From assembly GCF_004010195.1 (NCBI RefSeq), contig NC_057749.1:5510584-5543626 (forward strand): a stretch of DNA of 33,043 nucleotides, in the 5' to 3' direction. The notes beneath the pieces are model-generated. The model was not told where the DNA came from, made no database searches, and saw only the letters and a program-made list of their open reading frames with translations. This stretch comes from Chiloscyllium plagiosum. Lineage: Eukaryota. The translations under genes were made by a program, and so were the position numbers. Shown here piece after piece: positions 870 to 32,147 of this stretch (positions within the stretch are counted from its first letter, which is position 1; each line of letters starts with the position of its first letter).

Positions 870-1282
870 GATTAAGTTGTGAGGAGAGATTATACAGATT
901 AGGCTTGTTTTCTCAAGGATCAGGAAAAAGTAAGGAATGCAGACACCAGAGTCAGAGTCGGAAAGTGTGATGCTGGAAAAGCACAGCAGGTCAGGCAACA
1001 TCCGAGGAGCAAGAGAGTCGATGTTATGGGCATAATTCCTAATGACTCCTGATGAAGGGCTGATGCTCAAACCGTCAACTCTCCTATTCCTCGGATCCTG
1101 CCTGACCTGCTGTGCTTTTTCTAGCACTATGCCTTTCTTCTCTAGAATTTAGAATGTTAAGGGATGACCTGAGTTAAGTCTTCAAGGTATTAACAGGAAA
1201 AGACAGGGTAGATGAAGATGAACTGTTTCATTAGTTGGGGAATTTGGAACCAGGGAGCATAGATTAAGTATTAGGGCCAGGC
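870..1282 (+). mobile_element. Old CR1 ORF2 C-terminal fragment split by a PLE fold-back insert
   Basis: EERLYRLGLFS (~882-914) resumes as LEFRMLRDDL..VFKVLTGKDRVD (~1142-1213). Confidence 0.7.
915..1130. mobile_element. PLE-derived fold-back mini-element with degenerate hammerhead
   Basis: Inverted arms ~971-1023 and ~1073-1126; CTGATGAAGGGC at 1049-1060; same sequence family as the PLE end at 32640-32723. Confidence 0.8.
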
Positions 1283-1635
1283 TCTGTCATCACAAGGGGT
1301 GCTACCACATCCAACCCATTGTCAGCCACTAATAGTCCACATTGGCAGCTATCGATTCTCCCAGGCTGACCTTTACCTATTCCTTTGTCTGTCCAACCTG
1401 TTTTCTCTTTGTCTGAGCTCCATCTCCACATATCATTTCCTCCTACCCCCCCATCCCGCCTTCAGTATATATGCCAACACTTTCCTTGCTACAATCAGTT
1501 CTGAAAAATTGTCGCTGGACCTGAAACGTTAACTCTGCTTTCTTTCCACAGATACTGCCAGACCTGCTGAGTTTCTCCGGCAACCTCTGCTTTTCTTTCA
1601 GATTTGTGTGCATCCACAGTTCATTGGCTTTTTAA
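1283..1635 (+). mobile_element. PLE 3' terminal repeat fragment with mutated hammerhead (1497-1534)
   Basis: Pyrimidine-rich tract then AGTT-CTGAAAA...GAAACGTT-AACT (perfect stem I; core G8>A), followed by the ...tgccagacctgctgagtttctcc tail shared with 7732-7862 and 20400-20547. Confidence 0.7.
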
Positions 1636-2529
1636 AAGATTTCTCCTCATCTCTGTTTTAAATCTGGTTAGCAGCATAATAGTGGAACTGGTTCAATGGA
1701 CCAAGTGGCCCATTCCTGCTCTTACTTTCTACCTTCTGATGCATTACATGCAATTGTGTTATTGCAATCTAGTCAAAGAACCAGCACATGTATGATGCAC
1801 CAAATGGCCTCCTTATGTATTTTAACACATTACAATTCTGACTGAGATTGATATTCAGGTCCGAGGATTTATTGAAGTGAGAAAAATGCTGGATTCTAAT
1901 GGATATAAAGTGGCATATCACACAAATAATTCAAGCTGCTGTACTTTCATTCCAAACATCATTTATTATCGTTTATTATTTGCCAGATGGATATTAAATA
2001 TTTAATGTGCATAACTGTGCATGGACCACGAAACTTACTTGCCTTCCGATGAACTGCTGAATTAAAGTTTCAGGATTCAAAGGAGCTGCTTGTTTGGGTA
2101 ACGGTTTTAGTCTGACTCAGTTCTGTATTCCTATCTGTGCTGTCGCAGTCTGAAAAAGGCATAAACTGTAAAATAATGCTGTCCTGCTGCAAGATTGTTT
2201 GTGAGATCTTTTCCATGCCAGCTTAGCTTCTTCTATTTGATTGTAAGGACACTTTTGAGTCAGATGCAGAATGACCACAGTATGTTCTGCTTAAAGTTTT
2301 TTCCACTGATGGCTTGGTAACAGTTAAGTCAATTGTCAGCCATGGATCCAAGCCATGGTCGTTGTGTCTCTTTGTCGTATAATGCTGTAATCTGCTCGCT
2401 TAATCACGCCAGGCAGAATATTTATTCAAAGTTCTATTAAAGACAAAAGCTTTTTCCTTTGGTCAGTTGAGGTATGTAAGATTTTAAAAGGAATGGGCAC
2501 AGAATTGTGTTACTTTAAGAAGTGATTGA

Positions 2530-3141
2530 ACATAGAAATATTTTTTAAAAAGGAGCACTCTGATTGTGGCTGATCATCCAACTCAATAGTCTGTTCCTGC
2601 TGTTCGACAATACCTTTTGATCCCTTTCACCCCCAAGTGCTATATTCTACTCTTTCTTGAAATCATATGATGTTTCACTCTTGACCTCTTGCTATGGTAG
2701 CGAAATCCACAGACTTACCACTCTCTGGGTGAAGAAATGTCACCTCATCTCAGTCCTGAATGGTTTGCCCATCTCCTTCGACTGTAATCCTAGTTCTGGG
2801 CTCCTTGGTCATTGGGAACATCCTTCCCAAATCAATCCTATTGAGCCCTGTTAAAAGTTTGTAGGTTTCTAGGAGATCTCCCTTCATTCTTCTCAACTCA
2901 GTGAATATAAACCTGCCCTCATGCATCAGTCCTGCCACTGCAGCGATCAGTTTAAGCCTTCGCTGCACTCCCTCTACAGCAAGAACATCCTTCTCCAGAT
3001 AAGAAGACCAAAACTGCACGCAATATTCCTGGTGTGGTCTCGCCAATGCCCTGTATGATGGCAGTAAGCCATCCCTGCTCCTGTACTTGAATCCTCTTGC
3101 CATGAAGGGCAACATGCTATTTGTCTTTTTGACTGCCAATG
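2530..3141 (-). mobile_element. CR1 LINE 3' fragment
   Basis: ORF 2750-3139 encodes YRALARPHQEYCVQFWS...ELRRMKGDLLETYK (CR1 RT C-terminus), followed by a CR1-type 3' UTR. Confidence 0.9.
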
Positions 3142-3835
3142 TTCATAGGTTCCTTGAAATTGGATTCGCACGTAGACAGGGTAGTGAAGAAGGCATTTGG
3201 TATGCTTGCCTTTAATGGTCAGTGCATTGAATGTAGAAGTTGGGAGGTCATGTTGCGGCTGGACAGGACATTAGTTAGGCCACTTTTGGAATACTGTGTT
3301 CAATTCTAGCCTCCCTGCTTTCAGAAGGATGTTTTTAAACTTGAAAGGGTTCAGAAAAAAATTTACAAAGATATTGCTGGGTTTGGGGGGGTTTGAACTA
3401 TAGGGAGAGGCCAAATAGGCTGAGGTACTTCCCCTGGAGCATCAGAGGCTGAGGCGTGACATGAAAGAGGTTCATAAAATCATGAGGGGCATGGATAGGG
3501 TGAATAGTCGAGATCTTTTCCACAGGGAAGGGGAGAGTCCAAAATTAGTGAGTATAGTTTTAAGGTGAGAGGGGAAACATTTACAAAGGACCTAAGGGGC
3601 AACATTTTCATGCAGTGGGTGGTGTCTGTAAGGAATGAGCTGCCAGAGGAAGTGGTGAAGACTGGTACAATTGCAACATTTAAAAGGCATCAGGATGGGT
3701 ATATGAATAAGAAGGGCTTGGATGGATATGGGCCAAATGCCGGCAAATGGGACTAGATTAATTTAGGATATCTGCTGGTTATGGACGAGTTAGACTGAAG
3801 AGTCTGTTTCTGTGCCATACAGCTCTATGACTCTA
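3141..3835 (+). mobile_element. CR1 LINE 3' fragment (HER1-like subfamily)
   Basis: RPLLEYCVQF motif, ORF 3565-3756 (NELPEEVV..GTIATFKRH), tail ctctatgactctac. Confidence 0.9.
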
Positions 3836-4509
3836 CGTCACAAGTGCATTCTTACCTTCAGAGAATGGCGTACAAAGACTCTCAGGTTTCGTTGCATATT
3901 CCTGTCTTTCAATTTACCGCAAATCAGATAACAATCTTCGTGTTGTTGCTGCCTTAGTGGAGACATTTATCCACATTATAGTGCATCTTCCATTGGAATG
4001 GGAATAATTCTACTTACTGTGCATCATCAACTCAAACACTGGGATAACAACTAATGTAATAACTAATGTAGCTGTAATTTGGTCAAATTCTGCAGAGTAA
4101 ATGAGCCACAGCAAACTGAGTTCCAATGGAGTGTGTTAATTAAATATTAGGTTTAAATTGTTTGCTGAATCTTACCTTTTGAAATGTCACCAATATTAAG
4201 ATCTCAAGAGATGGATTTAATTGGTTCTTTTCAAATTGTCCATGTTAGAGTGAGTCTGCTTTAAAATTGCAAAACTCTGCAGAGACAAACATTGAAAAAA
4301 ACGAATGATTTATATTTCAGTTGGCTGAACTGAAATGAAAATCTGGTGAATGAACTGCAAATGAAAAACTCATTCAAAGTATTTTTCATTCATACTTTTT
4401 GTGTTCACTCCAGGTTATTTTAGCACTTCCCAAGATCTACCCTTTACGATGCCTCATATTTCCTAACAGAGTCAAAATCTGACTGAGGTCAGGCATAGAC
4501 ATAATGAAG

Positions 4510-4659
4510 TAGAGAGTGTGGTGCTAGAAAAGCACAACAAATCAGGCAGCATCCGGGGAGCCAGAGAATCGACGTTTCAGGCAAAAGCCCTTCATCTCCT
4601 GCTTTTCCAACACCACACTCTTGACTCTGATCTCCAGCATCTGCAGTCCTCACTTTCTC
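4510..4659. mobile_element. PLE-derived fold-back mini-element
   Basis: gtgtggtgctagaaaagca ... tgcttttccaacaccacac inverted arms; minus-strand GATGAAGGGCTTTTGCCTGAAACGTC; degenerate TSD 4494-4509/4660-4675 (13 of 16 match). Confidence 0.8.
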
Positions 4660-4702
4660 CATTGACTTAAGGAAGCCCATTCTTCAATGAGGGCCATTGT
4701 GA

Positions 4703-5046
4703 ATCATAGAATCCCTACAGTCTGGAAGAAGGCCATTTGGCCCATCAAATCCACATCACCCCTCCAAAGAGCATCCCACCCAGACCCACCCCACTACCTT
4801 ATCCCTGCAACCCCACATTTACCATGGCTAATCCACATACTCTAAACAAGTTGGATGCTATGGGTAATTTCCCATGGCCAATCCATTCAATCTGCACATC
4901 TTTGGACTGTTGGAGTAAACCGGAGCATCCAGAGTAAACCCATGCAGGCACGGGGAGAATGTTCAAACTCCACACAGACAGTCGACCAAAGTTGGAATCA
5001 AACCCGGGTCCCTGTGAGGCAAAAGTATTAACCACTGAACCACTGC
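4703..5046 (-). mobile_element. HE1-type tRNA-derived V-SINE
   Basis: tRNA-like head with A/B boxes, central gtggagtttg...ttctccccgtg domain, CR1-like tail ...ctgtagggattctatgat. Confidence 0.85.
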
Positions 5047-5119
5047 AGGCAAAAATTCAATCCAAGTTTTCCAAGTGTCTCTAGCCTGCTTCTCCTGTGT
5101 CTGTTTGTGCATTTCCACA

Positions 5120-5221
5120 AAGTCATACATTGAGTACAGGAATTGGGAGGTCATGTTGCAGCTGTGCAGGATATTGATTAGGCCACTTTTGGAATACCGC
5201 ATTCAATTCTGGTCTCCCTGC
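5120..5221 (+). mobile_element. Short internal CR1 RT fragment
   Basis: YIEYRNWEVMLQLCRILIRPLLEYRIQFWSPC. Confidence 0.8.
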
Positions 5222-5276
5222 ATTGGTTTGATTGGTAGACCATTTACTTTGGTAGGAGATGAGTGCATGAATGTAT

Positions 5277-5587
5277 TTAGATTAGATTCCCTACAGTGTG
5301 GAAACAGGCCTTTCGGCCCAACCAGTCCACACCGACCCTCCCAAGAGTAACCCACCCAAACCCACTTCCCTCTGACTAATGCACCTAACACTATGGGCAA
5401 TTTAGCATGGCCAATTCACCTGACCTGCACATCTATGGACTGTGGGAGGAAACCGGAGCACCCGGAGGAAACCCACGCAGACACGGGGAGAATGTGCAAA
5501 CTCCACACAGATAGCCGCCCGAGGCTGGAATCAAACCTGGGACCCTGGTGCTGTGAGGCAGCAGTGCTAACCACTGAGCCACTGTGC
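5277..5587 (-). mobile_element. HE1-type V-SINE, near full length
   Basis: Minus strand reads gcacagtggctcagtggttagcactgctgcctcacagc ... ccacactgtagggaatctaatcta. Confidence 0.9.
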
Positions 5588-5593
5588 AGCCCC

Positions 5594-5890
5594 CCTCACA
5601 CTACTAGGGACCTGGGTTCGATTCCAGCCTTGGGCCATTGTGTATGTGGAGTTTGCATATTCTCTCCATATCTGAATGGGTTTCTTTCAACAGTTCAAAG
5701 ATGTGCAGCTTAGGTGAACTTGTCGTACTAAATTGCCCATAGTGCTCATGGTTGTGTAGGTTAGGTGCATTAGTCAGGGGTAAATGTTGGAGTGATAGGG
5801 TTGGGGAATGGGTCTGGGTGGGTTGCCTCTCGGAGGGTTGGTGTGGACTTGTTTGGCCATTTGGCCTGTTTCTGCATTGTAGAGATTCTT
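5594..5890 (+). mobile_element. HE1-type V-SINE lacking the A-box end
   Basis: B box gggttcgattcc at 5614-5625, central domain and tail. Confidence 0.85.
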
Positions 5891-6149
5891 CTTCTATTTA
5901 GGCTGAGTGTAAGCCTGTGTGCACAGATTAGAGAGAATATTGGCAGTATCCAAGTCAATGTTTATCCCTCAACCAACATCACTATAAAAACTTTAGACAA
6001 AATTGTATATAAATTAGTTAAGTATCACTTTTCACAGAGCCTTTCCCTCCATTAAAAAAAAATGGGAATCGGAATCAAAAACCACAATTTTATGCCTTAG
6101 GGGTGGAAGTGCACCCAACTCATCACATACCAAAAGATTCAAACACAGT

Positions 6150-6358
6150 TTCTTCCTTGCTGTTATTAGCATTCTCAAATTTTAAATGTTGATCTCGCTC
6201 TCTGTGCACCTTCTCTGCAGCCATTACATTGCATTCCTCGCTCTGTTCTATTACCCTAACACACTTTGACTGATATAGTCTGCCTGTACTTCTGCAAAAC
6301 AGAAACTTTTCACTGTACCAAGGTACATGTGACAATAATAAATCAAATCAAACCAAAA
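6150..6358 (+). mobile_element. L2-type LINE 3' end
   Basis: actttttcactgtaccaaggtacatgtgacaataataa followed by an (atcaa)n-like tail. Confidence 0.6.
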
Positions 6359-7483
6359 CCATTTAATAGGTGCCATAGGAAACTGGGAGGTGGAGAGTGA
6401 CTTTTGCCATGGTTGGGCTTGCAAGTGGCAACAAGTGGCTATGTTCAACAGGTCAAATGGGACAATCAGTTATGTCACTGTGCACCCAGATCCTTGTCTT
6501 TTATTGAACAACCTTGTCTGGGCTCCTACAACAAGAATCAAGGAAAAAGAAGCCAAAGCAAATCATTACCAATTTAGCCTGTAAATGTGAAGAAATTAAT
6601 TTTCATTGCAATGTTCAGATGCAATAGTTCAACTTTGAGCTCATTTGTATCATCTCACAATGTGCGTGAGGTCTATGCATATAGCAATCTGGCTTCTTCT
6701 TACACAGAAAGGCTTAGATATTTGATTCCAACCCACCAGTGTTTATTGTTATCATCTTATCTTCCAGCTCCCAGAGACCAATGCTAGATCTGCAATAACA
6801 TAAGTAAATAGTGCGTTTAATTACTAATGGATCTTTGACTCGGCAAATCATTTAAAAACTGAATCGCTTTCAGGTATTTAAATTGTATCATTGCTTGGCT
6901 CCATCACATAACATTTCCCGGAGAGCTCTTTGGTAAAAGTATATAATCAGATTCCTTGGTGCAAAATTGAATCTTCAAGCTTTGCTACCTTCTCTGTCAT
7001 ACTGAAACTAATGGAGCAGCCAGTGTGTGAGGACCATTGGTGAATTTCTTCATGACGTATGAGGTTATTGCTTTAACAACTTCTTTTTGACCTCAGGAAA
7101 GATTTTAGTTTATTGAAGTAGTCCATTTTTACTGAAATGAATAACTGCTTTCTGACGTGACCATTTGATCTGAACGAGGATGCTGTCCAATTGATTTCCA
7201 TCCTGCCCTCTAGCATCTGCTGGTCTCCTTTATTTTATTTGCCAACCTTCCCTTATCAGGATGCCTTAGTGGTAGTTCTCTCACTGCTGCAGAGTTGAAG
7301 GTCTCATTCCAGTTTCCAGCCCCTAGTATAGGCTGGCACTTTGTTGTTACATACAGGAAGCGCCACATTATTGGAAGTGCTGCTTTTTGGATGAGACGTG
7401 ACACTGAGGCCTTGGCTGCTTATTTGGGTGAATGCAGCAGGTCCTGCACAATCTTTCCCATGGAAAGAATGCAAGGCAACATT

Positions 7484-7641
7484 GATAGAATCATAGAATC
7501 CCTACAGTGTGGAAACAGGCTATTTGGCCCAACAAGTCCATACCGACCCTTCAAAGAGTAACCCACCCAGATCCACTCCCCTACCCTATTACTCTACATT
7601 TACCCCGACTAATGCACCTAACCTATGGGGCAATTTAGCAT
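7484..7641 (-). mobile_element. HE1-type SINE 3' fragment
   Basis: atagaatcatagaatccctacagtgtggaaacaggc...gcaatttagca. Confidence 0.85.
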
Positions 7642-7731
7642 TTACCCCTCATCCCCTGCCCCCACCATCTCCCCATCATCCACCCCTCCATCAACACCAC
7701 CAGCAAAATGGATCAATAGGCCTCTTATTTA

Positions 7732-7862
7732 GGTGCTGAGGAAGGGTCACTGAAATGTTAACTCTGATTTATCTTCACAGATGCTGCCAGACCTGCCGAG
7801 CTTTTCCAGCAACTTCTGTTTCTGTTTCTGATTGACAGCGTCCATAGTTCTTTCGGCTTCCA
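7732..7862 (+). mobile_element. Single-arm PLE hammerhead mini-element
   Basis: CTGAGGAAGGGTC at 7736 onward, GAAATGTTAACT; TSD CTTATTTA at 7724-7731 and 7863-7870. Confidence 0.8.
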
Positions 7863-7905
7863 CTTATTTAACTGCTTGTTGTGGGATTTTGCCGAGCACA
7901 AATTA

Positions 7906-8245
7906 AGGGGAGGTGATGGCCTAACACTGGACTGTTAATCTAGAGATCCAGGTAATGTCCTGGAGACCCCGGTTCAAATCCTGTTAAGGCAGATGGTAGA
8001 ATTTAAATTCAATACACACCTGGAATTAAGAATCTAATGATGACCAGGAATCCAATGCTGACTGTTAGAAAAACCCATCTGGTTCACTAATATCCTTTAG
8101 GGAAGGAAAGTACCATCCTTACCTGGTCCGGCCTACATGTGACTCCAGATCCACAGCAATGTGGTTGACTCTTAACAACCCTCTTGGCAATTAGGGATGG
8201 GCAACAAATGCTGGCCTTCATCCTGTGAATGAATGAATAAAAAAC
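7906..8245 (+). mobile_element. Second tRNA-headed SINE family (here called SINE-B), full length
   Basis: B box ggttcaaatcc at 7971; body aaaacccatctggttcactaa...ccttacctggtc; tail gcaattagggatgggcaacaaatgctggcc...gaatgaataaaa; four further copies in the window. Confidence 0.8.
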
Positions 8246-8457
8246 AGGGCTGTTGATTTTGCCAAAACGTTGCATCAGTAACTACAATTCAGAAGTGATA
8301 CATTTACAGGGGAAATACCCGAGGATGTAAAAGGTGTGATATAAACGCTAGTACTTTTAATAGAGATGACGCTGATTAGAAATGTCTAAATTAGATGTTT
8401 ATATCCACCTGAAAGGAAACACAAATGGTACATGATATCTTGCCAGGAAAAGAGGCA

Positions 8458-8667
8458 CATCCAATAACGTGCAGGCAGGTTAAATGGTTTGGCCTTTAAA
8501 CTTGCATTGTGGTGCCTGGGTGATGTGCAGGCTAGGTGAGTTAGCCATTGTAAATGTGTGGCTATATGGATAGGGTGGGAGCTGGTCTGAGTGGAATGCA
8601 CTTAGAGGGTCAGTGTGGGACTCCGTAGGCTGTGAATGGCCTCTTGCTGAACTCCAGCGATTCTATC
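8458..8667 (+). mobile_element. Diverged HE1-type SINE 3' half
   Basis: gatgtgcaggctaggtgagttagccat...gagggtcagtgtgg...gattctat. Confidence 0.65.
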
Positions 8668-8739
8668 AATCTGCTCCATGGCAATATTACAGCCTGGGAT
8701 AACTTGCTTTTTCTTGAATTTAAACAAAATTGTTGAGGG

Positions 8740-8920
8740 GAGTGGGATAACTGTTCCCTGATACAATCTCCATGGCAATGCCTCAACCAATCAGATTCCA
8801 CATGCCAACCTTTTCTCATACAGCGTAAGTTGTTGTTCCCATTGAAGAGTGGCATTCTTGCATCTGTCCTGATGAATGCAAAATGGAAAGCTTCAACAAC
8901 ATGCCTCTTTTTCCAACAAT
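8740..8920 (+). mobile_element. Probable PLE terminal-repeat remnant of a distinct family with hammerhead-like motif (8865-8898)
   Basis: ccaatcag box, then TGTC-CTGATGA-atgcaaaatg-GAAAGCTTC-AACA. Confidence 0.5.
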
Positions 8921-9630
8921 AATTATGTTCAGTAAGTTATATCTTTTCTCTCATTCACAACTGAAGTTATTTAACAATCAAGCCTCTGTTGAGTGAGCCT
9001 TCAGTTTCATGGTATTTCTTTGGAACTTAAAGAGACCAGTTGTTTAGTCCTGACAAGGGTAGACCAGAGGTTTGGCTCTGAAATCTGCATCAGTATTCAA
9101 GAGAATATTTGCCCAAATGAAGATGGGAACCACCCCCTGTTCTCTCACCATTGTCTGAGCTTTAAGAGTCCATTAATCCCTTCAGCCATATGTGCCTGAC
9201 TGCCTATATAAAATCTGTCATATCCGTAGGAATGGGTTCCCGTCATGGCCTGTCAAACTGTTATTCGGTCTCCAAATGTTTCTCCTAGGAATGAGTGTGG
9301 AAACACCAAACAACCTTTGTGCCACTGGAAATTCATCAAACCTGCTTCCAGACCAGCAATAATACAAGGGATCACCTTCTGTGATCTTCCACTGTGAGGG
9401 AGGCATGTTATAGTTCACTCAGGGAGTCCACTTTTTTGCGGTACCATGTGATTTTACAGGTGCACTATAATCTGGAGCAATCGATAGTGATGATAGAGAC
9501 TTTACTTCTCTTTCCATCGCCCAGCTGACCATAGGAATGCCTCCCCTGACACTGGCAAATGTTGAAAGGATGTACATGCCAAAGAACTAGTAGGCCACTC
9601 AGCCCCTTGAGCTCTCCTATTCAATAAGAT

Positions 9631-9925
9631 GCTCAGTGGTTAGCACTGCTGCCTCACAACGCAGGGACCTGGGTTTGATTCCAGCCTCAGGCGACTGTGT
9701 GGAGTTTGCACGTTCTCCCCGTGTCTGCGTGGGTTTCCTCCGGGTGCTCTGGTTTCCTCCCACAGTCCAAAGATGTGCAGGTTAGGTGAATTGGCCACGG
9801 TTAATTGCCCATAGTGTTAGGTGCATTAGTCAGAGGGAAGTGGGTTATGGGTGGGTTACTCTTCAGAGGGTTGGTATGGATTTGTTGAGCCAAAGGACCT
9901 GTTACCACACTGTAGAGAATCTAAT
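9631..9925 (+). mobile_element. HE1-type V-SINE
   Basis: gctcagtggttagcactgctgcctcac...ccacactgtagagaatctaat; short AAGAT duplication at the flanks. Confidence 0.9.
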
Positions 9926-10015
9926 AAAAAGATTATGGCTGATCTACTTGTAACCCCAAAGCAACATCCTCACCTCTCCCTGATATTCCTCTCCATTCTC
10001 TTGATTACCAAGAAA

Positions 10016-10350
10016 GGGCAGTACGGTGGCTCAGTGGTTAGCACTGCTACCTCACAGAACCAGGGACTTGGGTTCACTTCCACCCTCAGGCAACTGTCTG
10101 CGTGGAGCTTACACATTATGGCTGTGTCTGCATGGGTTTCCTCCGGGTGCTCCTGTTTCCTCCCACAATCCAAGATGTGCAGGTTAGATGGATTGGCCAT
10201 GCTAAGTTGTCTGTAGAGTCCAGGGTTGTGTAGGCTAGGTGGATTAGCCATGGGAAATTCTAGGATGGGGGCAGGGACACTCTTCGGAGTGTAGGTGTGG
10301 AATCAATGGGCTAAATGGCCTGCTTCCACACTGTGCGAATTCTATGATTG
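10016..10350 (+). mobile_element. HE1-type V-SINE, full length
   Basis: gggcagtacggtggctcagtggttagcactgc...ccacactgtgcgaattctatgatt. Confidence 0.9.
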
Positions 10351-10387
10351 TACAAAACCATCAACGTTTGCCTTAAAAATACTCAAC

Positions 10388-10757
10388 GACTTTATAGAGG
10401 TTAATAAGATCATGAAGGGCATTGATAGAGTAAATAGACAAGGTCTTTTTCCCAGGGTAGGGGAGTCCAAAACTAGAGGGCATAGGTTTAAGGTGAGGGG
10501 GAAAGATTTAAAAAGGACGAAAGGGGCAATTTTTTCACACAGAGGGTGGTGTGTGTATGGAATGAGCTGCCAGGGGAAGTGGTGGAGGCCGGTACGATGA
10601 CAACGTTTAAAAGGTATATGAATAGGAAGGGTTTAGAAGGATATGGGCCAAAAGCTGGCAAATGGGACTAGATTAATTTAGGATATCTGGTCAGCATGGA
10701 CGAGTTGGACCAAAGTATCTGCTTCCGCGCTGTACGTCTCCATGACTCTATGATTCT
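10388..10757 (+). mobile_element. CR1 3' fragment (HER1-like)
   Basis: DFIEVNKIMKGIDRVNRQGLFPRVGESKTRGHRFKVRG; tail ctccatgactctatgattct. Confidence 0.9.
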
Positions 10758-11778
10758 ACTGCCACCTTTTTTTTTATATATAGAAGGGAGCCCCAAATAT
10801 TTAAAACACTCAAAAGAGAAAAAATAAACTAGCCTCATCTCTGCCTCAAATGGGCTACCACTTATTAATTAACAGCGTTCTCTAGTTCTGGATTTTCCCA
10901 CAAGAGGAAACGTCACCTCCATGTTCATTCTGTCAAGACTTTTCAAGATCTTATATGTTTTATTCAAGTCACCTCATACTCTGCTGGCCTCCAGCAGATA
11001 AAAGCTAAACTGGCTCGGCTGTCTTATGATCATCTCTGGCCATTGAAACCCAAAAAGGGACCCAAACCCCGGGCTTCTAGGCCAGAGTTGGGGAAGTTAC
11101 CCACCGTGCCACAAATATCTCTGTGGGGTAATACCTTTTGCCAATCACAATCTCCTCCTGATGGCACATTAAGCATTTTTAATGAATGGGCTATCTATCC
11201 CAGCAAGCCACCAGTCACCTTTTAAGGTACAAAGTCTCTGCAGCCACATGTGACAGGCCAACACAAAGAGTAGGCCAAGGACCAGATACCGTCAGCACTG
11301 TGGAAGCAGGCTCTGTGCAATCCTAGAATCAGACTGTAGTAGGCAGGACCAAAAACAGGAAGACAGATTATCTGAATGGCAATAGCTTGGGAAGAGGGAA
11401 GATGCAACAAGACTTGGGTATCTTTGCCCACCGGTCACTGAAAGGAAGCAAACTGTATGTTGACCTTCATAGTGAGAGGACAGGAGCAGGGGTGTCTTAT
11501 TGAAATTGGACAGGGCCTTAGTGACACCACACCTGAAATGTCGTGTGTAATTTTGGTCTCCTTACCTGAGAAAGGATGCTCTGCCTATAAACGGTGTGCA
11601 ATAGTGGCTTACCAGACTTATGGGATATATGAAGAGAGATTAGATCAGTTAGGACTAGATTCACTGAAGTTTATAAGAATAAAGGGAGGTCTCAGAGAAA
11701 CCTATACAGTACAAGATGGGTAACACAGGAAAGATGTTCCTGATAACCAGGGAGTCCAGAACCGTGGTCACAGTCTAA

Positions 11779-12058
11779 AGAGGAAAGAAGGAGGTAGTGA
11801 GGACTGCTGATGCTGGAGATTCAGAGTAGTTAGAGTGTGGAGTTGGTCAGGCAGCATCTGAGGAGCAGAGGAGCTGATGCTTTGGGCAGGACCATTCATC
11901 AGGACTGGCTTCAGACCCAGTCAGAGCTTCATCAGAGCCATCTACACTTGAAATGTCAGCTTGTTCTCTCTCCATGAATGCTGCCTGACCCACTATGATC
12001 TCCAGCATTTGTTGCTTTCAGTACAGATTCCAGAATTTGCAGTAACTGGCTCCTGCTC
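11779..12058. mobile_element. Chimeric PLE fold-back insert with two hammerhead-core remnants
   Basis: TSD TCACAGTCTAA at 11768-11778 and 12059-12069; TCATCAG (antisense core) at 11896-11902 and 11929-11935. Confidence 0.75.
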
Positions 12059-12092
12059 TCACAGTCTAAGGATACACGGGTCAGCCATTTAG

Positions 12093-12184
12093 AGCATAGA
12101 ACATAGAAATTACAGCGCAGTACAGGCTCTTCGGCCCTCAATGTTGTGCCGACCCGTGGATCCAATCTGAAGCCCATCTATCCC
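12093..12184 (-). mobile_element. Short antisense CR1-type 3' tail inserted in the CR1 host
   Basis: catagaacatagaaattacagcgcagtacaggctcttcggccc; interrupts host gccattt|aggactgag. Confidence 0.75.
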
Positions 12185-12499
12185 AGGACTGAGATGAGAA
12201 GAAATTTCATCACCCAGAGAGTAGTGACGCTGTGGAAATTGGTCTCAGGAAGCAGTTGAGGCCATAACATTGAATGTTTTCAAGAAGGAGATAGTTATAG
12301 TTCTTAAGGATAAAGGGATCAAAGGGCATATAGTGAAAGCACAAACAGACTACTGGGTTAGATGAGCAGCAGTGACCATATTCAATAGTGGAGGAGAATC
12401 ATAGGGCCAAACAATCTACTCCTGTTCCTATTTCCTATATTTCTGTGGTTCAGGAATCAAGCCATTTATTACATTGTGTTTGTGCTGTCTCCTCTACAG

Positions 12500-12910
12500 T
12501 GATATCTAATTATTTTCATTCCCTTAATCTTTCTCTACAGCCTGCAGGCTTTTCATATTCATGTATACATTTAATTGCTTGTTGTAAGCTGCTAATATTC
12601 TCATGTACTTAAAATATGTTGCTGGAAAAGCGCAGCAGGTCAGGCAGCATCCAAGGAGCAGGAGAATCGATGTTTTGGGCATGAGCCCTTCTTCAGGAAT
12701 ATTCTCATGTCGCCTTCCAGGTCATAGCAAGATGCTGCATTAAAAAAAACCTGTCCAGTTTCTGCTCTGGTTCTTTTGCCAATTACCTTGCATCTGTATC
12801 TGCACTTACTAAACTATCCTGATTGTTTAAACAATGTGTCTCTTTATCTGTTCCAGAAAGACCACTAGTAATCTTGAATTCCTCCAGTAAATATTCTCTT
12901 AACCTATTGA
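12500..12910 (-). mobile_element. Highly diverged CR1 3' fragment
   Basis: ctggttcttttgccaattaccttgcatctgt...taatcttgaattcctccagtaaatattctcttaacct resembles an antisense CR1 ORF2 end. Confidence 0.5.
12607..12697 (-). mobile_element. 91-nt single-arm PLE hammerhead mini-element
   Basis: Minus strand CCTGAAGAAGGGCTCATGCCCAAAACATCGATT; TSD AATATTCTCATGT at 12594-12606 and 12698-12710. Confidence 0.85.
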
Positions 12911-14419
12911 AAGGTGCTTGATCCTGAAAGAATTAACGTTGATATTGCATTAGACTCCACCCAGTCCGATAATGTCACACACTGCTGGGTAAGACCTCTA
13001 TGGAGACAGAGACATCACCTCTGGCTCCTGATAGTAATTATGCTTAGCTGGTTGAAGTAACTTGGAGCTATTGACATTATGCAATAAACTACATTTTGTT
13101 ATTAAGGCACTTTCCTCTTCTTGTTAAGACTCAAGAGCAGCATATCCTCTGTCACTACTAATTAGATAGACCCTTAGACTGAGCACAAAAAGAGAGGGTT
13201 AGTGGCAACACTCGATCCTGAACTCAAGCAACCAATCGTTGGGAAAACATATAAACATGGCGATCAGCGATTGCATAAATTCCATGGCTAGCAATGATGG
13301 GAAAAATAATCTGTTCAACCATGGCAAAACATTTTCAGAGTTAAGGTGAGTTTACCAATTGTAGAACATTACCATTTTAAGTTGGTACAATCAGTGATCA
13401 ACTGAAAATGCATAAAAGAGCAAAAGGTCAGGCAAGTGAACATGTGAGATGCAGTATGGCAAAAGGCAACACACCCATCGGGTAATGAGGCAATGTTTAT
13501 AATAATGGCACAAAGGTATAGATCAGGAAGGGTAGATGGGGAAAAGCATTTTCTCTTTGAAACAAGCATCGCAGAAGCAGGCCACATGAGATTTGACAAC
13601 AGATGATAAAGCAGTAACCTAATGATGATGCACTTCTCAAGCTTCCACCCTAAGCATACTAAAACAGCCATCCCCTACAGATAAGCCCTATGCATACACA
13701 GGATCTGCTCAGATGAGGGGGAACGCAATGGACACCTGAAGATGTTTAAGGATGCACTCATAAGAACAGAATACAATGCTCAGCTCATCGATCGCCAATT
13801 CCATTGTGCTACAACGAAAAACTGTAATATCCTCCTCAGGAGACAGACATGAGATATGACCGATAGGATACCCTTCACATTCCAGTACTTCCCTGGAAAT
13901 TACTACGCCATGCTCTTCACAGCCTTCAACACATCATCGAAGATGATGAATACCTCGCCCTGATCTTCCCTACCCCTCCACTTCTCATCTTCAAATAACC
14001 GCCAAACCTGAAACAGAGCATTGTTTGCAGCAAACTACCCAGCCTTCAGGACAACATTGACCACAACACCACACAACTTTGCCACAGCAACCTATGCAAG
14101 ACCTGGCAGATCATCGACCTGGATACTACCATCACACGTGGGAACATCACCCACCACATACACCCCCACTATGACAATGACTAAATGGACACTGCACAAT
14201 GAACAACACACAGGAGGCATTCCCTCCCAGTGGGGGAACATTTCGGCGATCCAAGACATTCAGCCTCTGATCTTCGGATAAGCATCTTCCAAGGCGGACT
14301 TCAAGGTATGCAACAATGCGAAATCGCTGAGCACAGGCTGACAGCTAAGTTCCATACCCAAGATCAACCATGATCTTGGGTTCATGTCACACTACAGGTA
14401 ATCCCACCACACTATATAT

Positions 14420-14668
14420 TCCCACACACAGTTTCTCTCACACACACTCGCACACTTACACAGACCCACTCCCATACACATACATGCACTTGCACTGTCT
14501 CAAATACATATACGTGCAAACACTCTCTCACTCTCTGAAATGCACACACACAACTCTTTCTCACACATGCATGCATATACACTCCCTCTCTCACACATTC
14601 ACACATTCTCTCTCTCGCGCACACGCACACACACACACACACTCTCTCTCTCACACACACACGCTCTC
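14420..14668. repeat. Degenerate (CA)n/(CT)n microsatellite within the PLE
   Basis: cacacaca and ctctctct runs. Confidence 0.9.
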
Positions 14669-14970
14669 TGGGGCGAATTATTTCATTCAAGATTCTTTTC
14701 TGTCAAAAAATAAAACTAGACCTCAGCTTAAAACATAGATTTGATGCAGGACCTCACACCTAAAATGCATTGTCTAACCTGAGATGTCATCTCTTGTGCA
14801 TTGATAAAAACTTTAATTATCTAAGGACAATGTCTTCAAAGCAATCTGGATTTTGCGTTTGAATCAGCAGTCTACCTCCTAACTGATTAAAAGATTCAAC
14901 AAGGGCAGAAGGTTTAAAGTTGCTACCTTTTTGCTTATAAACACTATGTCTAATACCTCTCGATCATACC

Positions 14971-15006
14971 ACACCTGAGGAAGGAGCTGAGCTCTGAAAG
15001 CTTGCA
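14971..15006 (+). ncRNA. Minimal type-I hammerhead ribozyme motif
   Basis: CTGAGGA (14975-14981), A, GGAGC-tga-GCTCT stem II, GAAA (14996-14999), GCTT; stem I weak. Confidence 0.65.
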
Positions 15007-15177
15007 ATTTCATATAAACCTGTTGGACGATAACCTGATGTTTGATTTTTGACTTTGTCGAACTCAGTCCAACTTGGGCATCTCCACATCATAGATTTCA
15101 TGTCAGAGATAAACCAAACAAAACATATGATTGGAAACTTTGAGAAAACAATTCACAAGATACAAAGCTCCTTTAAC

Positions 15178-15280
15178 ACATTAGCTTGATCCCTCTCCGT
15201 GGATGTTGTCTGACCTGCTGTGGTCTCTAGCATTTATTGTTTTCAGTACAGATTCTAGCATCTGCAGTAATTTGTTCCTT
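15178..15280 (+). mobile_element. PLE 3' tail fragment (same subfamily as the right arm of 11779-12058)
   Basis: ctctccgtggatgttgtctgacctgctgtggtctctagcatttattgttttcagtacagattctagcatctgcagtaat. Confidence 0.7.
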
Positions 15281-15639
15281 CAAAATTAAACCCTAAATCT
15301 CAAATTGAGCAAATATATCATATTATTCAGTAGGACCTTCAGCAGATGATGTGGTAAATCTCCAAAGTATAAAAGCACAAATACTGTATGAAGTTACAAC
15401 AACTTGCAATGATAACAAATAATACATAAAACAAAGAAAGAAATGTTTATTTATTGAGAAGAAAAGGCCTGGAAAGAGACTGAAATAATAGATAAGTTCA
15501 ATATCAACATATTTCTTACATAACACCATTATTGACCTCTACAGATTAGTGGAAAACTCTTGATGATGAAGCTTTGAAATTAGAATACATAAGAGACAAG
15601 TTTGTTGTTGAAATTATTGCTGAGTCTGTCAGACTTATT

Positions 15640-15812
15640 AAAGCTCAAGGAACGTATGAGTTTGGAGAGAGCTATTCATATTGTGTCAGAAGTTGGAGTC
15701 AGAAATACAGGACGATGTGAGTTTTTAGGTCATCTATGATTATATTGAATGGTGGAACAGGCTCAAGGGACCGAATGGACTACTCCTGTTCCTATTTCTT
15801 ATGGTTTTATGG
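15640..15812 (+). mobile_element. CR1 3' UTR fragment
   Basis: attgaatggtggaacaggctcaagggaccgaatggactactcctgttcctatttcttatgg. Confidence 0.75.
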
Positions 15813-15927
15813 TGTTAAATCCTAAGAGGAGAAGAACACCCTTACTACAGAATAGAACCTATCCATTTCATAAGGTGCACATCTCTATAGGTAAACAAGA
15901 CAAGCCAAAACAAAGAGTAGAACTAAA

Positions 15928-16097
15928 GGTTAAACACAGGCAGGTTCGACAGCATCTGAGGAGCAGGAAAGTCCATGTTTAACTGGAAGCATTGACTGTC
16001 CTGCTCCTTGGGTGCTGTGTGACCTACCTACCTGTGCGTTTCCAGCTTCACATCTATTGACCCTGGCTTCCAGCATCTGCAATCCTTACTGTCTCCA
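15928..16097. mobile_element. PLE fold-back mini-element
   Basis: cagcatctgaggagcaggaaagtc ... gactgtcctgctccttgggtgctg inverted arms; TSD AGAACTAAA at 15919-15927 and 16098-16106. Confidence 0.75.
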
Positions 16098-16159
16098 AGA
16101 ACTAAATGTCACCTCCTGAAAATGCGCGGCCATGCAAGATATAGTTTCAGAGCAGCAAA

Positions 16160-16585
16160 AGATTGTCAGAAAAATCCATCTGGTTCACCAGTGTCATTCA
16201 GGGAAGGAAACTGCCATCCTTACCTGGTCTGAGACAAAAAAAGCTGCAGATGCTAGAATCCAAGGTAGAGAAGCAGGAGGCTGGAAGAACACAGCAAGCC
16301 AGGCAGCATCAGGAGTTGGAGAAGTCAACATTTCGGGTGTAACCCTTCTTCAGGATCAAAGAATGGTTACACCTGAAATGTTGACTTCTCCACCTCCTGA
16401 TGCTGCCTGACTTGTTGTCTTCTTCCAGCCTCCTGCTTGTTGTCCTTACCTGGTCTGGCCTACACGTGACTCCAGGCCCATAGCAATATGGTTGACTCTT
16501 AACTGCCCTCTGGGCAATTAGGGATGGGTAATAAAAGCTGGCCTAGCCAGTGACGTCCTCTTCCTGTGAATGAATAAAGAAAAAC
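16160..16585 (+). mobile_element. SINE-B 3' portion interrupted by a PLE fold-back
   Basis: Colinear with 8060-8245 once 16232-16442 and one TSD copy are removed. Confidence 0.8.
16232..16442. mobile_element. PLE fold-back mini-element with near-intact minus-strand hammerhead (16322-16357)
   Basis: ~74-bp inverted arms 16271-16344 and 16365-16438; CTGAAGA-A-GGGT-tac-ACCC-GAAA-TGTT-GACT; 15-bp TSD TCCTTACCTGGTCTG at 16217-16231 and 16443-16457. Confidence 0.9.
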
Positions 16586-18035
16586 AGACACTTACACATC
16601 CAAAGAGGATATGCAGTAGAAGGTCCTTGTTTCAAAATAAAATCTCTGCATTAGTCAATGAACCTGTATTTGAAAAGGTATCTGAAAATTTCCTGGGAGA
16701 ACTGGTGATCTAATTGATTTGAGATTTATAATATTCATGCATGTCACTTTTAAGTGTTAAGCACCTGTTAATTTTAAGTGTGATATGGGTGCAAGTGACA
16801 TGGTCCTGTCAGATCAAATACAATGGTTGCAGTAACAGAAGCTACCGCCTACAGAGATGAAACAAAATTGTACAAAAATAATTCCTTCATTGAACAAGGA
16901 AAGTGCTATGCAAATGCAAGTCATTCTTATGTTTCTCATCAACATAAAAATATTAGCATAGCTGCAAGCCACATTCTGTGGCAGTAGCTTACAATCTGCC
17001 AAGTCTTACCTAAAACAAAATAGCTCCCTGTACAACGATAACATCTAAAAGCTATCATTTAAAATCCTTTATTTGCTGTACCAACCTTGCTGAACCCACA
17101 CCCCCTGAAACTGTTCATTACAGTCCCTTGTTAGTTCTATTGAAAGACTGACAGCTGGCTTCTATTTGAACAGAAACAAAGTGTGGGAGTTAGTGGGAAC
17201 CTATTTAATAATTTCCCATGTTAAATATTATAATTTCCATACAAATTTAGCCGCATTGAGAGGTATAATTTACTATTTGTTCCCAAATACCCTTACCAAA
17301 AAAAAATCCTCTCCAGTTTAATTACACCAAGTGAGTGTTTAGTTCAGGCTATTAAACATATAATCTACTCACTATGGAATTCCCAATTTCACTTTTTTTA
17401 TTAAATCTATTTTTCTGTTCTACAAGAAATAATTGTCTGTAATTTTTCAGCGAAATCAACCTCACTATTTGGTCATTATGTATAATTACATCCCTCAGAG
17501 AGGCCAAGAAAAAAAAGACTTCAGCACTATATCTCCCAGATTCTGATTATCACCTTTTTAAATGTCACTTACAAAATCAACCTCACTTTCGAAAACACAT
17601 AGGCAATTGAGTTCCTACTGCATTCTTGCATCAAACTATCAGTTTAGTTAAATTAAGTTGTTATTAAAATTTTGCTCATTGCATAAAATATCAACTAGTG
17701 TGCTCATGACAGTAAGAGAAGGTTAATATTGGCAGATTGAATACTTGGTCAGTGTGGATTTAAAGCTATTTAAAGAAGGTGCATTGAATTTACAGGAAAT
17801 CTCCTTTTCTCTCTGCCTAAAAACATGAACTCCCAAAATGTTAGTCATGGTTCAGTTATATCACTGCATTCATTGAGGTACTCAAGAGGGCACTGGATGG
17901 TTTTTTGGATAGCAATGGTGTGCAGAGATATGGATAAAAGGCTGGACATTGGCACTGGATAATAGAATCAGACTCAAAGATTGAGCCAGAATAGATAATG
18001 AAGTTCGACTAAATAACTGCAGGTTCTATTATCAC

Positions 18036-18354
18036 AGGGGAGGCCCTGGCTTCATGGCATTATCACTGGAAACTTGGTTAAAGACTCAAGTTTGAATCCC
18101 ACCATGGCAAATGGTGGAATTTGAATTCAATAATGAATCTGGAATCAAGGATCTAATGATGACCATGAAGCCATTGTCAATCGTCATAAAAACCCATCTG
18201 GTTCACTGATCTCCTTTAGGGAAGAAAATCTGCCATCCTTACCTGCTCTGGCCTACCTGTGACCCACAACAACGTGGTTGACTCTTAACTGTCCTGTAGC
18301 CAATTAGGGATGGGTAGTAAATGATGGACTAGTCAGTGACACCGACATCCCATG
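18036..18354 (+). mobile_element. SINE-B, full length
   Basis: Colinear with 7906-8245 (tttgaatcccaccatggc...aaaacccatctggttcact...caattagggatggg...catcccatga). Confidence 0.8.
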
Positions 18355-19206
18355 ATTGATGGGCCAAATAGCCTCCTCCTGAGTCATAATGATTCTGTGA
18401 AATTGTGGGCTCAAAGCTCACTCCAGAAACTACAGCATATAACTTACGGGAAAAAACTCCAGATGTAAGTATTTACAAGGGGTGGTGCTAGGTTCTGGAT
18501 GAGCTGTTAAAGTGAGGCACAGCTTGTTGTAATGATCACATTTCTTTTTTAAAATCATTAATTTTCAATTGTGAATCAAAATGGAAAAATGATACTACCT
18601 TCAACACATGAAACTGTGGATAAGGATGTTGAAGTTTTAAAACAAGTGACTGAAACTCATTGCCAGTTGTATTTACGCAGTTCTTTGTTCAAGCAGTGCA
18701 GGGGAGTGGTGATTGGTGGGGAGATGGTGAACACTGATTGGCGCAATGGGTGAGTATTCAGAACAGTTTTGCCCAGCAACAGACTGGTGATTGGTTTTCA
18801 GTCAAAACAGTTGTGTAGGTCATGTGTCAACAGCATAGTAACACCTCTCTGATTGGCTCCTGGGCAGGTGTACTGTTTGTGTACTGAAATACAGCAATAG
18901 AAAGCATTCAGGCTATGGAAACATCTCTTTATTTTTGCAGGGAAGTGACAAAGAATTGGAAATATCCTCACTCACCATTTGCTTATTAGCTGCTACGTTT
19001 AACCAGTGACTGAAACACTGAGCAATGAGTGTGCTGACTGCCTTGCGTCTGCAGTAAAGAACTGAATGGACTTGGAAAGAAGTGAAAGAAAATTGGAGAT
19101 CAGAAGGATTCAGAAGAAGCAAATGGAAACCTCATTGAATTCTGTGGACTGGTGCTATTGAACTGTATTTCCCTAATATTTTCTTTTCAACCCATAACCC
19201 ATAAGC

Positions 19207-19549
19207 AGGCAGTACGGTGGCTCTATGGTTAGCACTGCAGCCTCACAGCATGAGGGACCTAAGTTGAATTCTAGCCTCAGGCGACTGTCTGTGTGGAGTT
19301 TGCACATTCTCCCTGTGTCTGCATTGGTTGTCTCCAGGTGCTCCGATTTCCTCCCACAATCCAAAGACGTGCATGTTAGATGAATTGGCCATGCTAAATT
19401 GCCTGTAGTGTTCAGGGATGTGTAGATTTGGTGCATTAGTCAGGGGTAAATGTAGGGTAGGGAGAATGGGTCTGGGTGGGTTAGTCTTCAGAGGGTTGGT
19501 GTGGACTTGTTGGGCCAAAGGGCCGGTTTCCACACTGTAGGGATTCTAC
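19207..19549 (+). mobile_element. HE1-type V-SINE, full length
   Basis: ggcagtacggtggctctatggttagcactgc...ccacactgtagggattcta. Confidence 0.9.
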
Positions 19550-19699
19550 AATTCAAATTAACACATCATGCAAATTGGTTACTGTGTTTCCTACCTTACA
19601 AAATTGACTATATTATAAGAAGTATGTATTTGGCTGCAACACATTTTGGGAAGTCATGGAAATTGCTATGTAAATTTAATTTCTTTCACTTTTTTTCAC

Positions 19700-19862
19700 C
19701 ACTCTGACTTGGAAGTATGTCATTGTTCCTTCAGTGTCATTAGTTCACAATCCTGGATTTCCCTTCCGAATTGCATTGTGGGTCAACCTACAGCTCACCC
19801 CACCTCCTCAAGGCCAAGTAGAGTTGGATAAAAAGTGCCCACATCCCATGAACGAATAAAAA
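19700..19862 (+). mobile_element. LINE 3' end of the family sharing its tail with SINE-B
   Basis: ctgacttggaagtatgtcattgttccttcagtgtc...ctcaaggccaagtagag...gcccacatcccatgaacgaataaa. Confidence 0.65.
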
Positions 19863-20224
19863 TGAATTCTGATTTTGATTTGATTCCAATGGCTGCTATG
19901 GTATCACTGTACTTTATATCACTAATAGATAATGCAATGGAACAATCAGACAAGAATTGTTAGCCCTGTTCCACCTTCCAAAACACTGCCACTTAACTCT
20001 AAATCTAGTGTGTGTCACCATAACGTAAGGATAGGATTGGGATCATCTGTGGTAACATTTATAAGTCAAATGTCCTTCTAAACTCAGACTAGTGAGCCGT
20101 ACAATGACCAGTTGAACAAGATACAATACAGTTGATTTTGAAGCTGTATCGAAATCCATTGTCTCATGTGTAGGTTCAATCCAAATGGATTTGTTTCTTC
20201 ATGGAAACAGGGAGGAACCTTTTT

Positions 20225-20690
20225 TTTGCCCATCCTGGAACTGACAGGCCTGCTAAGCCATTCCAGACAGCAGCTGAGTCAACCACATTTCTGTGGATAT
20301 GGAATCACATGTAGATCAGACCAGATAAGGATAGCATATTTCTTCCTTTCAAAGACACTAGTGAACCACATGAGTTTTAACAACAATCAATGATAGTTTT
20401 CCAATTAAAACAGAAGGTGCTGGAGAAACTCAGCAGGTATGGCAGTATGGACACCGACAGAAGCAGGAGGTAATGTTTCAAGTCTGATATGACTCTTCTT
20501 CAGAACTGAAAAAGCAATGGCATTTATGTTGTTGGGAAAGAGAGCATTGATAGTTTGATCATCATTATTAATGAGACTAGCTTTCCATTCTAGAGATTTT
20601 ATTCATTAAATTGAAATTCCATGCACTCCTGAACTGGAGCTTGAACCTATGACCCAATGATACAAGCCTGGCCCTCTGGATTGCCAATAC
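20225..20690 (-). mobile_element. Diverged SINE-B split by a PLE insert
   Basis: ttgcccatcctg...gagtcaaccacat...agaccagataaggatagca...agtgaacca; resumes after 20556. Confidence 0.65.
20400..20547 (-). mobile_element. Single-arm PLE hammerhead mini-element
   Basis: Minus strand AGTT-CTGAAGA-A-GAGTC-atatca-GACTT-GAAACATT; TSD TGATAGTTT at 20391-20399 and 20548-20556. Confidence 0.8.
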
Positions 20691-22682: not shown

Positions 22683-22689
22683 CAATCGT

Positions 22690-22952
22690 ACTGGGTTCTG
22701 TAATGAAGGTGAGGAATTCCAGGACAGTAATCACAGAAAAACAGGGAGTCACCCCAGTGTTCAGTCCAACATTCTTCCATCAGTCAAAGAAGCAGAATAA
22801 CTGGACATCCAATCCACTGCAGGTTTGGGATCTTGCTGTACTCAATGCATGTGTGTTGCATTTCCTCACAAAACAATCTCTGCATTTATGGGAGATCGCT
22901 GCCAGTTGTAGGAGGCTATTTATAGTTCTATATAAATGCAAATGCTTCTTTC
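22690..22952 (+). mobile_element. Diverged Deu-domain SINE 3' part
   Basis: aacagggagtcaccccagtgttc...tttgggatcttgctgtactcaa...ctatataaatgcaaatgcttctttc. Confidence 0.55.
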
Positions 22953-24440: not shown

Positions 24441-24474
24441 GTTGTTGTTCATCGCTGGTTGTTCTTTAGAGCGT

Positions 24475-32102: not shown

Positions 32103-32104
<2 letters not shown>

Positions 32105-32141
<37 letters not shown>

Positions 32142-32147
32142 GGGGGG
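32105..32147 (+). repeat. Poly-G tract (G36-T-G6)
   Basis: Direct read of the sequence. Confidence 0.9.

Follow-up and report, generated by a model that had tools for sequence, protein, structure and literature searches.

Short end-pieces of Penelope-like elements with a hammerhead motif in a repeat-rich region of the Chiloscyllium plagiosum genome

Short inserts in the window and their target sites

The DNA analysed here (the window, 33,043 nt of Chiloscyllium plagiosum contig NC_057749.1) is repeat-rich DNA of a cartilaginous fish, in which eight short inserts derived from Penelope-like elements (PLEs) were examined together with further module copies and fragments of longer PLEs (Table 1). 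The inserts represent the terminal 55-130 nt of PLE units, that is, a minimal hammerhead ribozyme motif with the region downstream of it, either with or without a tail of approximately 40 nt. In sense orientation, the module comprises the CUGANGA core, one extra base, stem II and GAAA; next come what remains of stem III, a palindrome of four bases, then a pyrimidine tract and a conserved 19-nt block, after which the module finishes either in a short end, located approximately 80-85 nt past the core, or in the additional tail of about 40 nt. Three of the eight inserts are single-armed and five have two arms placed head to head, with all eight layouts being different. The long tail was present on one arm only in four of the five two-armed inserts, the insert at 11779 having it on both arms.

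Table 1. Coordinates of PLE-derived features in the window. Family letters are the authors' own labels; positions of the inserts with a duplication include it.
Feature	Positions	Strand	Family	Structure	Target-site duplication
Head-to-head insert	915-1130		A	left arm minus, ~915-1045, long tail, decayed core; right arm plus, ~1045-1130, core at 1049, short end
Insert 4510-4659	4494-4675		A	left arm minus, 4510-4596, begins inside core (+2), short end; right arm plus, 4597-4659, tail only	13/16 match, 4494-4509 / 4660-4675
Single-arm insert 7732-7862	7724-7870	+	B	core at 7736, stem II shortened, long tail; 79% to 1517-1635	8 nt, 7724-7731 / 7863-7870
Chimeric head-to-head insert 11779-12058	11768-12069		A-like / E	left arm minus, A-like, core at 11902, long tail; then ~20-nt hairpin spacer; right arm plus, family E, 80% to 15175-15283, long tail; host a CR1/L2-like repeat	11 nt
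Minimal single-arm insert 12607-12697 (91 nt)	12594-12710	-	A	core at 12696, short end	13 nt
Head-to-head insert 15928-16097	15919-16106		A (A-like)	both arms begin near GAAA (~+20), core absent; left arm very short, right arm with long tail	9 nt
Head-to-head insert 16232-16442	16217-16457		C	arms 93% alike; left arm minus, intact minimal hammerhead 16353-16327 (only one among the eight inserts), long tail; right arm begins inside core, short end	15 nt
Single-arm insert 20400-20547	20391-20556	-	B (B-like)	core at 20503, short end	9 nt
Further family-B module	1495-1635	+	B	decayed core at 1501, CT-rich tract before it	none found
Further family-E piece	15175-15283	+	E	begins near GAAA, long tail	none found
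Decayed long PLE	13600-15090	+		CxxC linker, (CA)n untranslated region, own intact minimal hammerhead at 14975
3' end of long PLE copy	32623-32975	-	A	reference used in the read profile
Inverted piece of the same PLE insertion	32976-33043	+		reverse transcriptase N-terminal region, 9/18 identical to P0026

Exact direct repeats flank six of the eight inserts. When 1500 random pairs of sites were compared, allowing a slack of ±8 nt, repeats of this kind had chance probabilities p of 0.010 (7732-7862), 0.003 (11779-12058), 0.001 (12607-12697), 0.005 (15928-16097), 0.001 (16232-16442) and 0.005 (20400-20547), while the imperfect repeat around 4510-4659 had a p of about 0.005 with three mismatches permitted. 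For the insert 915-1130 a convincing duplication was not found among the random-pair comparisons (best p 0.04-0.26). The coordinates, the six exact duplications (each with p ≤0.01) and the imperfect repeat given in a preliminary description of this DNA were reproduced, with the exception of the decayed duplication claimed for 915-1130. Six exact duplications, one imperfect and one absent correspond to the short and variable duplications of the endonuclease-bearing PLEs. The duplicated stretches were enriched in A and T (69% across 81 letters versus 57% in the window), and the last three letters of the 13-nt duplication at 12607-12697 coincide with the element's own upstream letters, i.e. show microhomology.

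Further evidence came from uninterrupted paralogues of the host repeats. Four such loci in the window hold both flanks of the insert 16232-16442, the duplicated stretch being present once, and both flanks of 11779-12058 align to one continuous paralogue (2690-2900, minus strand) with an overlap equal to the duplication length. In the case of 20400-20547, the left flank aligned well to the host repeat and the right flank weakly. The duplications together with the empty paralogous sites identify the inserts as true insertions bounded by their duplications: the eight inserts are real, separately integrated PLE end-pieces.

Eight inserts in 33 kb correspond to one per 4.1 kb, as previously proposed (one per about 4 kb), although this is an average, all of them being located within the first 20.6 kb. 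No PLE stub was found over the 12 kb at 20600-32600, all eight inserts and several pieces preceding this stretch. One host repeat family is present in the window in five copies (8060-8215, 16132-16542, 18180-18327, 20263-20399 and 27076-27225), two of which were struck by PLE stubs (16232 and 20400) at different positions.

Sequence families and the hammerhead motif

Pairwise scores between the arms separated them into at least four sequence families. Two families are joined within the insert 11779-12058, where the two arms scored 17 against each other and the right arm scored 59 against 15175-15283. Nesting of one insertion in an older stub is an alternative explanation for this chimera, but no inner duplication was evident. 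The start positions of the arms, placed partly by eye and with a longer reference within the window for families A and B only, were concentrated at the hammerhead front: for nine of the 13 arms the start lies between about -13 and +8 relative to the first base of the core. The insert 20400-20547 has 44 nt upstream of the core, possibly an untranslated region (UTR), whose likeness to 1440-1500 was not significant (p 0.12). The insert 7732 may extend approximately 60 nt upstream into the UTR (p 0.09), but the flank was equally weakly similar to the repeat 5966-5990; the 8-nt duplication was kept.

A strict descriptor of the minimal hammerhead found two sites in the window, at 16353 (minus) inside an insert and at 14975 at the end of a long PLE, in comparison with a mean of 0.02 and a maximum of 1 in 300 Markov-simulated sequences. 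The other seven inserts had damaged cores and no intact minimal hammerhead. In the alignment of nine motifs (with one row misaligned by one column), 74.6% of the stem cells were paired against at most 47% when the alignment was slid, with stem II paired in 83% of the cells; covariation, with three pairs showing two-sided changes, is at most suggestive, as shuffled sequences matched its score in 39 of 500 cases. The base restoring U16.1 was found at 32693 in 27363 of 28844 reads (95%), being mutated in the reference copy 32719-32692. This indicates that the family-A consensus is an intact motif and that the window copies decayed after insertion. No hammerhead family appeared among the 10 Rfam matches of the window up to E 5, and a microRNA identity, suggested by the best Rfam matches, was rejected because these are long hairpins below the gathering score. 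Another family is represented at 8860-8915 by a CUGAUGA...GAAAGCUU core (at 8869) with a damaged stem II and no duplication found.

The inserts had been characterized before as hammerhead-bearing units consisting only of the motif, or its remnant, and the PLE tail. This needs modification in several respects: what they bear is mostly a remnant, the intact minimal motif being present in one of the eight (16353); 20400 includes the 44 nt before the core and has no long tail; 11779 combines two families and a ~20-nt spacer; and both arms of 15928-16097 are without CUGANGA and stem II. The earlier list, correct for the eight inserts, also omitted the modules at 1495-1635, 15175-15283 and 32623-32975 and the cores at 8869 and 14975.

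Link to coding Penelope-like elements

The 3' end of a long family-A copy, at 32623-32975, includes a frame resembling an endonuclease C-terminus, a CT-rich UTR, the hammerhead 32719-32692 and the start of the tail region. The frame resembles the end of the GIY-YIG domain as judged by eye, with no BLASTP alignment to the PLE protein P0026, while the adjoining inverted piece with the reverse transcriptase (RT) N-terminal region gave a weak pairwise E of 0.001 against P0026. Beyond 32975, 8452 reads run on with one common sequence (agreement 0.93). These features support the continuity of the family-A module with a coding PLE at this locus. A 168-aa frame at 32537-33040 had no homologues and was taken as a non-coding reading.

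For the families B, C and E no coding link was found within the window by DNA and protein comparison, and the idea that 1495-1635 adjoins an endonuclease end found no confirmation (DNA p 0.33, no protein match). The long copy at 13600-15090 was 61% identical to P0026 over 46 aa (E 6e-17), with RVT_1 recognized in P0026; judged from the CxxC linker alone, it may be Neptune-like. It belongs to a family other than those of the stubs, none of the eight inserts being its derivative. The retroelement fragment 13999-14181 had 53 homologues among 57 candidates, with the four named ones originating from the shark Heptranchias. Pfam gave no match in any of the four PLE fragments of the window, and RVT_1 alone in one of five homologues. 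Neither viral nor metagenome contigs contained the family-A motif (0 loci in each).

Genome-wide read profile and the stop zone

The sequence 32590-33043 served as a profile reference (80% likeness) for two raw DNA runs (X19 and X20, 1934 Mb each) and for contigs of two related species, the organisms B and C. The two runs yielded 93566 and 91379 aligned reads. The summed depth in X19 was 41.5k at 32654-69 and 29-30k over 32670-32717 (30.4k over the core) and fell to 11.6k at 32725, that is, by 62% within approximately 8 nt ahead of the core, being 6-10k over the UTR and 1.9k over the RT piece. At position 32723, 6105 reads of X19 departed from the reference with a consensus agreement of 0.39. 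The contigs of the organisms B and C departed at the same position in 468 and 389 cases, with a median loose length of 255 and 243; their agreement of 0.32-0.33 with long loose parts is what is expected from unique flanks. The loose-end consensus still shared about 9 letters with the reference beyond 32723 in the contigs and 30 in the reads, and the 9 letters of the contigs place the real stop zone at about -4 to -13. Strand-switch joints had one side at 32719-32724 in 488 of 521 reads, 293 of them at 32723, among the nine joint entries listed. For an assumed genome size of 3-5 Gb, the depth translates into approximately 47,000-79,000 hammerheads of family A and 3,000-5,000 copies long enough to include the RT N-terminus.

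The preliminary description had named a smooth truncation curve with every joint unique as the pattern speaking against units integrated at this size; what was found is a sharp drop in depth and a pile-up of joints. The recurrence of fold-back junctions, which it had suggested testing, concerns a zone, present in both reads and contigs, and not a single junction; the joints are spread over several bases.

At the predicted self-cleavage site (32692/32691) the depth was without a step: 28.5k at 32689 and 28.8k at 32693 in X19. This bears on the idea that the inserts result from a retrozyme-type cycle, in which the hammerhead would cleave itself and the resulting RNAs, monomeric or circular, would be copied by reverse transcription and integrated. 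The conserved architecture of the minimal hammerhead, the retention of U16.1 in most reads and the paired stem II fit such a cycle, yet both sides of the cut are kept in genomic order, and tandem head-to-tail units are missing, with none of the five tandem repeats in the window involving the module (a test at the level of the window, since 4 of ~91,000-94,000 reads per run are not informative on tandems). Moreover, the main substrate of the anole PLE protein in vitro was unprocessed RNA, and in anole the cut site was not the end point of any read (PMC11167929). A retrozyme-type origin is consequently hardly tenable.

A different possibility is decay, with long PLEs having lost their bodies later by deletion or by recombination between terminal repeats. 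The copies are indeed old, with arms 65-90% alike, and solo pseudo-long terminal repeats (pLTRs) described in a rotifer have been ascribed to deletion (PMC3846280). Random deletion, however, would neither halt at one zone in many thousands of loci of three organisms nor leave single arms flush with the duplication at both ends, as in 12607 and 7732, and recombination between direct repeats cannot yield head-to-head arms; such an origin is very unlikely.

Proposed origin of the inserts

The inserts are best explained, with a probability of roughly 0.7, as dead-on-arrival, abortive integration products of several coding PLEs. The earlier claim of integration at this size by the PLE machinery is supported by the flush duplications, the empty paralogous sites and the genome-wide pile-up of ends. 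The explanation as abortive products is based on the duplications beyond chance in seven of the eight inserts, on the one-sided tail in four of the five two-armed inserts, which is a published signature of PLE insertions, on the concentration of arm starts at the core and on the continuity of the module with a long PLE.

The anole PLE protein was reported to cleave and extend both strands at AT-rich sites in vitro, to initiate reverse transcription internally, at a pair of adjacent sites by which the tail is defined, and to give shorter products from templates with a shortened 5' end, hammerhead cleavage not being required (PMC11167929). By analogy with the published PLE biochemistry, the PLE protein would nick both strands of AT-rich DNA, and reverse transcription would begin at one of two internal RNA sites, resulting in the short end or the long tail. 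Priming at both nicks would give two arms, possibly even from two RNAs as in 11779, which would meet head to head and be joined through microhomology or repair. The least certain step concerns the template: if the RNA begins just before the hammerhead, the initiation site of the 5' repeat would be only ~90-130 nt from the RNA 5' end, and a run-off copy of 90-130 nt, resembling a strong-stop product, would follow. Full-length copies would then require the downstream site or a template jump.

Several observations weigh against this scheme. Four of the 13 arms start outside the zone (two at about +20, one consisting of the tail only and one at -35 to -44). A minor group ending at the cut site could be masked by an indel that the reference copy has at 32679-32689. 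The joint and loose-end figures cover the entries listed, with 271 joint and 1744 loose-end entries beyond these. The exactly symmetric joint 32723/32723 is recurrent (59 and 45 reads, 7 and 5 contigs), as would equally be expected from a copied palindromic master. The step at 32723 is partly an effect of the reference, the UTR of other subfamilies differing from there on, and the depth recovers to 24k at the endonuclease end (32926-32941 in X19), so long copies are common too; given the subfamily UTRs and this recovery, the share of family-A copies ending at the hammerhead lies between ~20% and 62%. Finally, the start site of the Drosophila Penelope is situated ~120 nt upstream of the intron border adjoining helix I (PMC2377424, PMC4209133), indicating that RNAs of PLEs do not generally begin at the edge of the hammerhead.

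Provided that the inserts are abortive PLE products, the RNA start is a somewhat more probable cause of the stop than stalling or endonuclease trimming. In the latter case, the stop would be set by protein or DNA: the RT would stall or disengage once the hammerhead has been unfolded, or the endonuclease would trim the new copy at an AT-rich site within its own repeat, the products being likewise abortive PLE copies and the difference concerning the stop cause only. A preference for 5'-ATT-3' and cleavage inside the element's own repeat are documented for the anole enzyme (PMC11167929), and family A reads ATT exactly at 32723-32721; the families B and C, however, start in the same zone without ATT there. 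Pausing at a structure would fit the spread of ends from -13 to +8 with a small group at about +20 (both arms of 15928, and 15175), but some arms start inside the single-stranded core. As an explanation of the inserts in its own right, a stop set by protein or DNA is doubtful.

The recurring symmetric joints, together with the tight size class (85-130 nt per arm) and the clustered ends, are also what would be expected from dedicated elements similar to short interspersed elements (SINEs). The stub of ~90-130 nt would in this case be a complete minimal retroelement with an RNA start, an internal promoter, the hammerhead and an RT-binding/initiation site, self-transcribed and re-copied in trans by PLE proteins; PLE copying would proceed via an integrating, re-copied product of the strong-stop type, with two complementary DNA copies, even of different families (11779-12058), being primed at the two nicks of a site and making the palindromes. 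An internal promoter is known in the Drosophila Penelope (PMC2377424), pLTRs alone can be mobilised in trans (PMC3846280), and non-autonomous PLE derivatives exist, such as MRC1 and others (PMC8557442) and non-LTR retrozymes (bioRxiv 10.64898/2026.07.22.740005). If true, every PLE family would spawn its own ribozyme-headed SINE. Such an origin is unlikely, because the eight inserts have eight layouts and originate from at least four families, with no stub-specific sequence seen, the joints are spread across several bases, the module also terminates long copies, and seven of the eight inserts have no intact hammerhead. A shared length, junction and diagnostic sequence, as a few masters would leave, was not found among the eight inserts, which is a small sample; the symmetric joints in the reads leave room for minor masters. 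The assignment to a SINE-like or retrozyme-like class, suggested in the preliminary description, is accordingly unsupported: besides the number of families and layouts, the two-family chimera, the absence of tandem arrays, ends located off the cut site, mostly dead ribozymes and the presence of the same module at the end of long PLEs all speak against it.

Other features of the window

A near-perfect 72-nt hairpin at 26225-26296 is a local inversion within a SINE copy, with Rfam microRNA matches below the gathering score. At 28902-29348 a 236-nt SINE unit is present twice in tandem (98% alike) inside an RT fragment of a long interspersed element (LINE; RVT_1 at 28069-28443), a possible recent duplication or an assembly artefact. 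The minus strand at 25-591 contains a 188-aa open frame with a GDSL/SGNH esterase domain (Pfam E 2.8e-13), presumably as in ORF1 of the CR1/L2-type LINEs. A run of 43 G at 32105-32147 is possibly a sequencing artefact.

Comparison with known systems

In the available literature, no account was found of ends piling up in front of the hammerhead, or of shark PLE stubs, the search having covered sources other than subscription papers, Repbase and Dfam. The endonuclease-bearing PLEs (Penelope/Poseidon and Neptune) are known for 5' truncation, an adjacent inverted copy and a one-sided tail of 30-40 nt (PMC8557442; PMC3846280; PMC11167929). The inserts share with them the head-to-head arms, the tail on one arm, microhomology at the 5' joint and AT-rich targets, and the duplications are similar (8-16 nt in comparison with the reported 8-10 nt). 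In contrast to the endonuclease-bearing PLEs as described, most of the window copies represent the terminal ~100 nt, with 5' ends piled up at the hammerhead front.

Minimal hammerheads in the pLTRs of metazoan PLEs have been found dispersed as single motifs by thousands and were ascribed to truncated PLEs (Cervera and De la Pena 2014, PMC4209133). The motifs described there and those of the window have in common the CUGANGA core, the extra base, a G-C-closed stem II, GAAA, the palindromic 15.2-16.2 and a stem I of 4-5 bp, as well as dual motifs on opposite strands (100-700 bp apart in that work) and the presence of several families per genome. They differ in abundance: ~47,000-79,000 for one family, in the assumed 3-5 Gb, in contrast to 4,000-9,000 descriptor hits in coelacanth and frog, albeit obtained by different methods. 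Sharks are not named in the available part of that paper.

Non-LTR retrozymes are defined by head-to-tail tandems, every unit of which has a hammerhead, and by circular RNAs (PMC7761336; bioRxiv 10.64898/2026.07.22.740005). Similarly to the inserts, they are non-coding, have a type I hammerhead, are related to PLE pLTRs, are proposed to use PLE enzymes and also occur as dispersed monomers; unlike them, the inserts are head-to-head or single, without tandems, and do not begin at the cut site. MRC1 of Chlamydomonas (PMC8557442) resembles the stubs in being non-coding and in having a 3' end common with an autonomous family, but it is a discrete family with its own body and pLTRs, whereas no stub-specific body or master is evident here.

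The stop zone bears on how PLEs complete an insertion and on the role of their hammerhead. Tens of thousands of stubs stopping before the ribozyme and not at its cut argue that self-cleavage does not define the template, and the zone predicts RNA 5' ends at -13 to -4. The two-family insert 11779-12058 preserves a natural trace that would fit priming at both nicks. In annotation, such repeats should be regarded as PLE ends and neither as microRNA hairpins nor as a new SINE. Overall, the class of elements has already been described, and the window presents a new and very abundant instance of it, with an under-described stop zone and an informative chimera.

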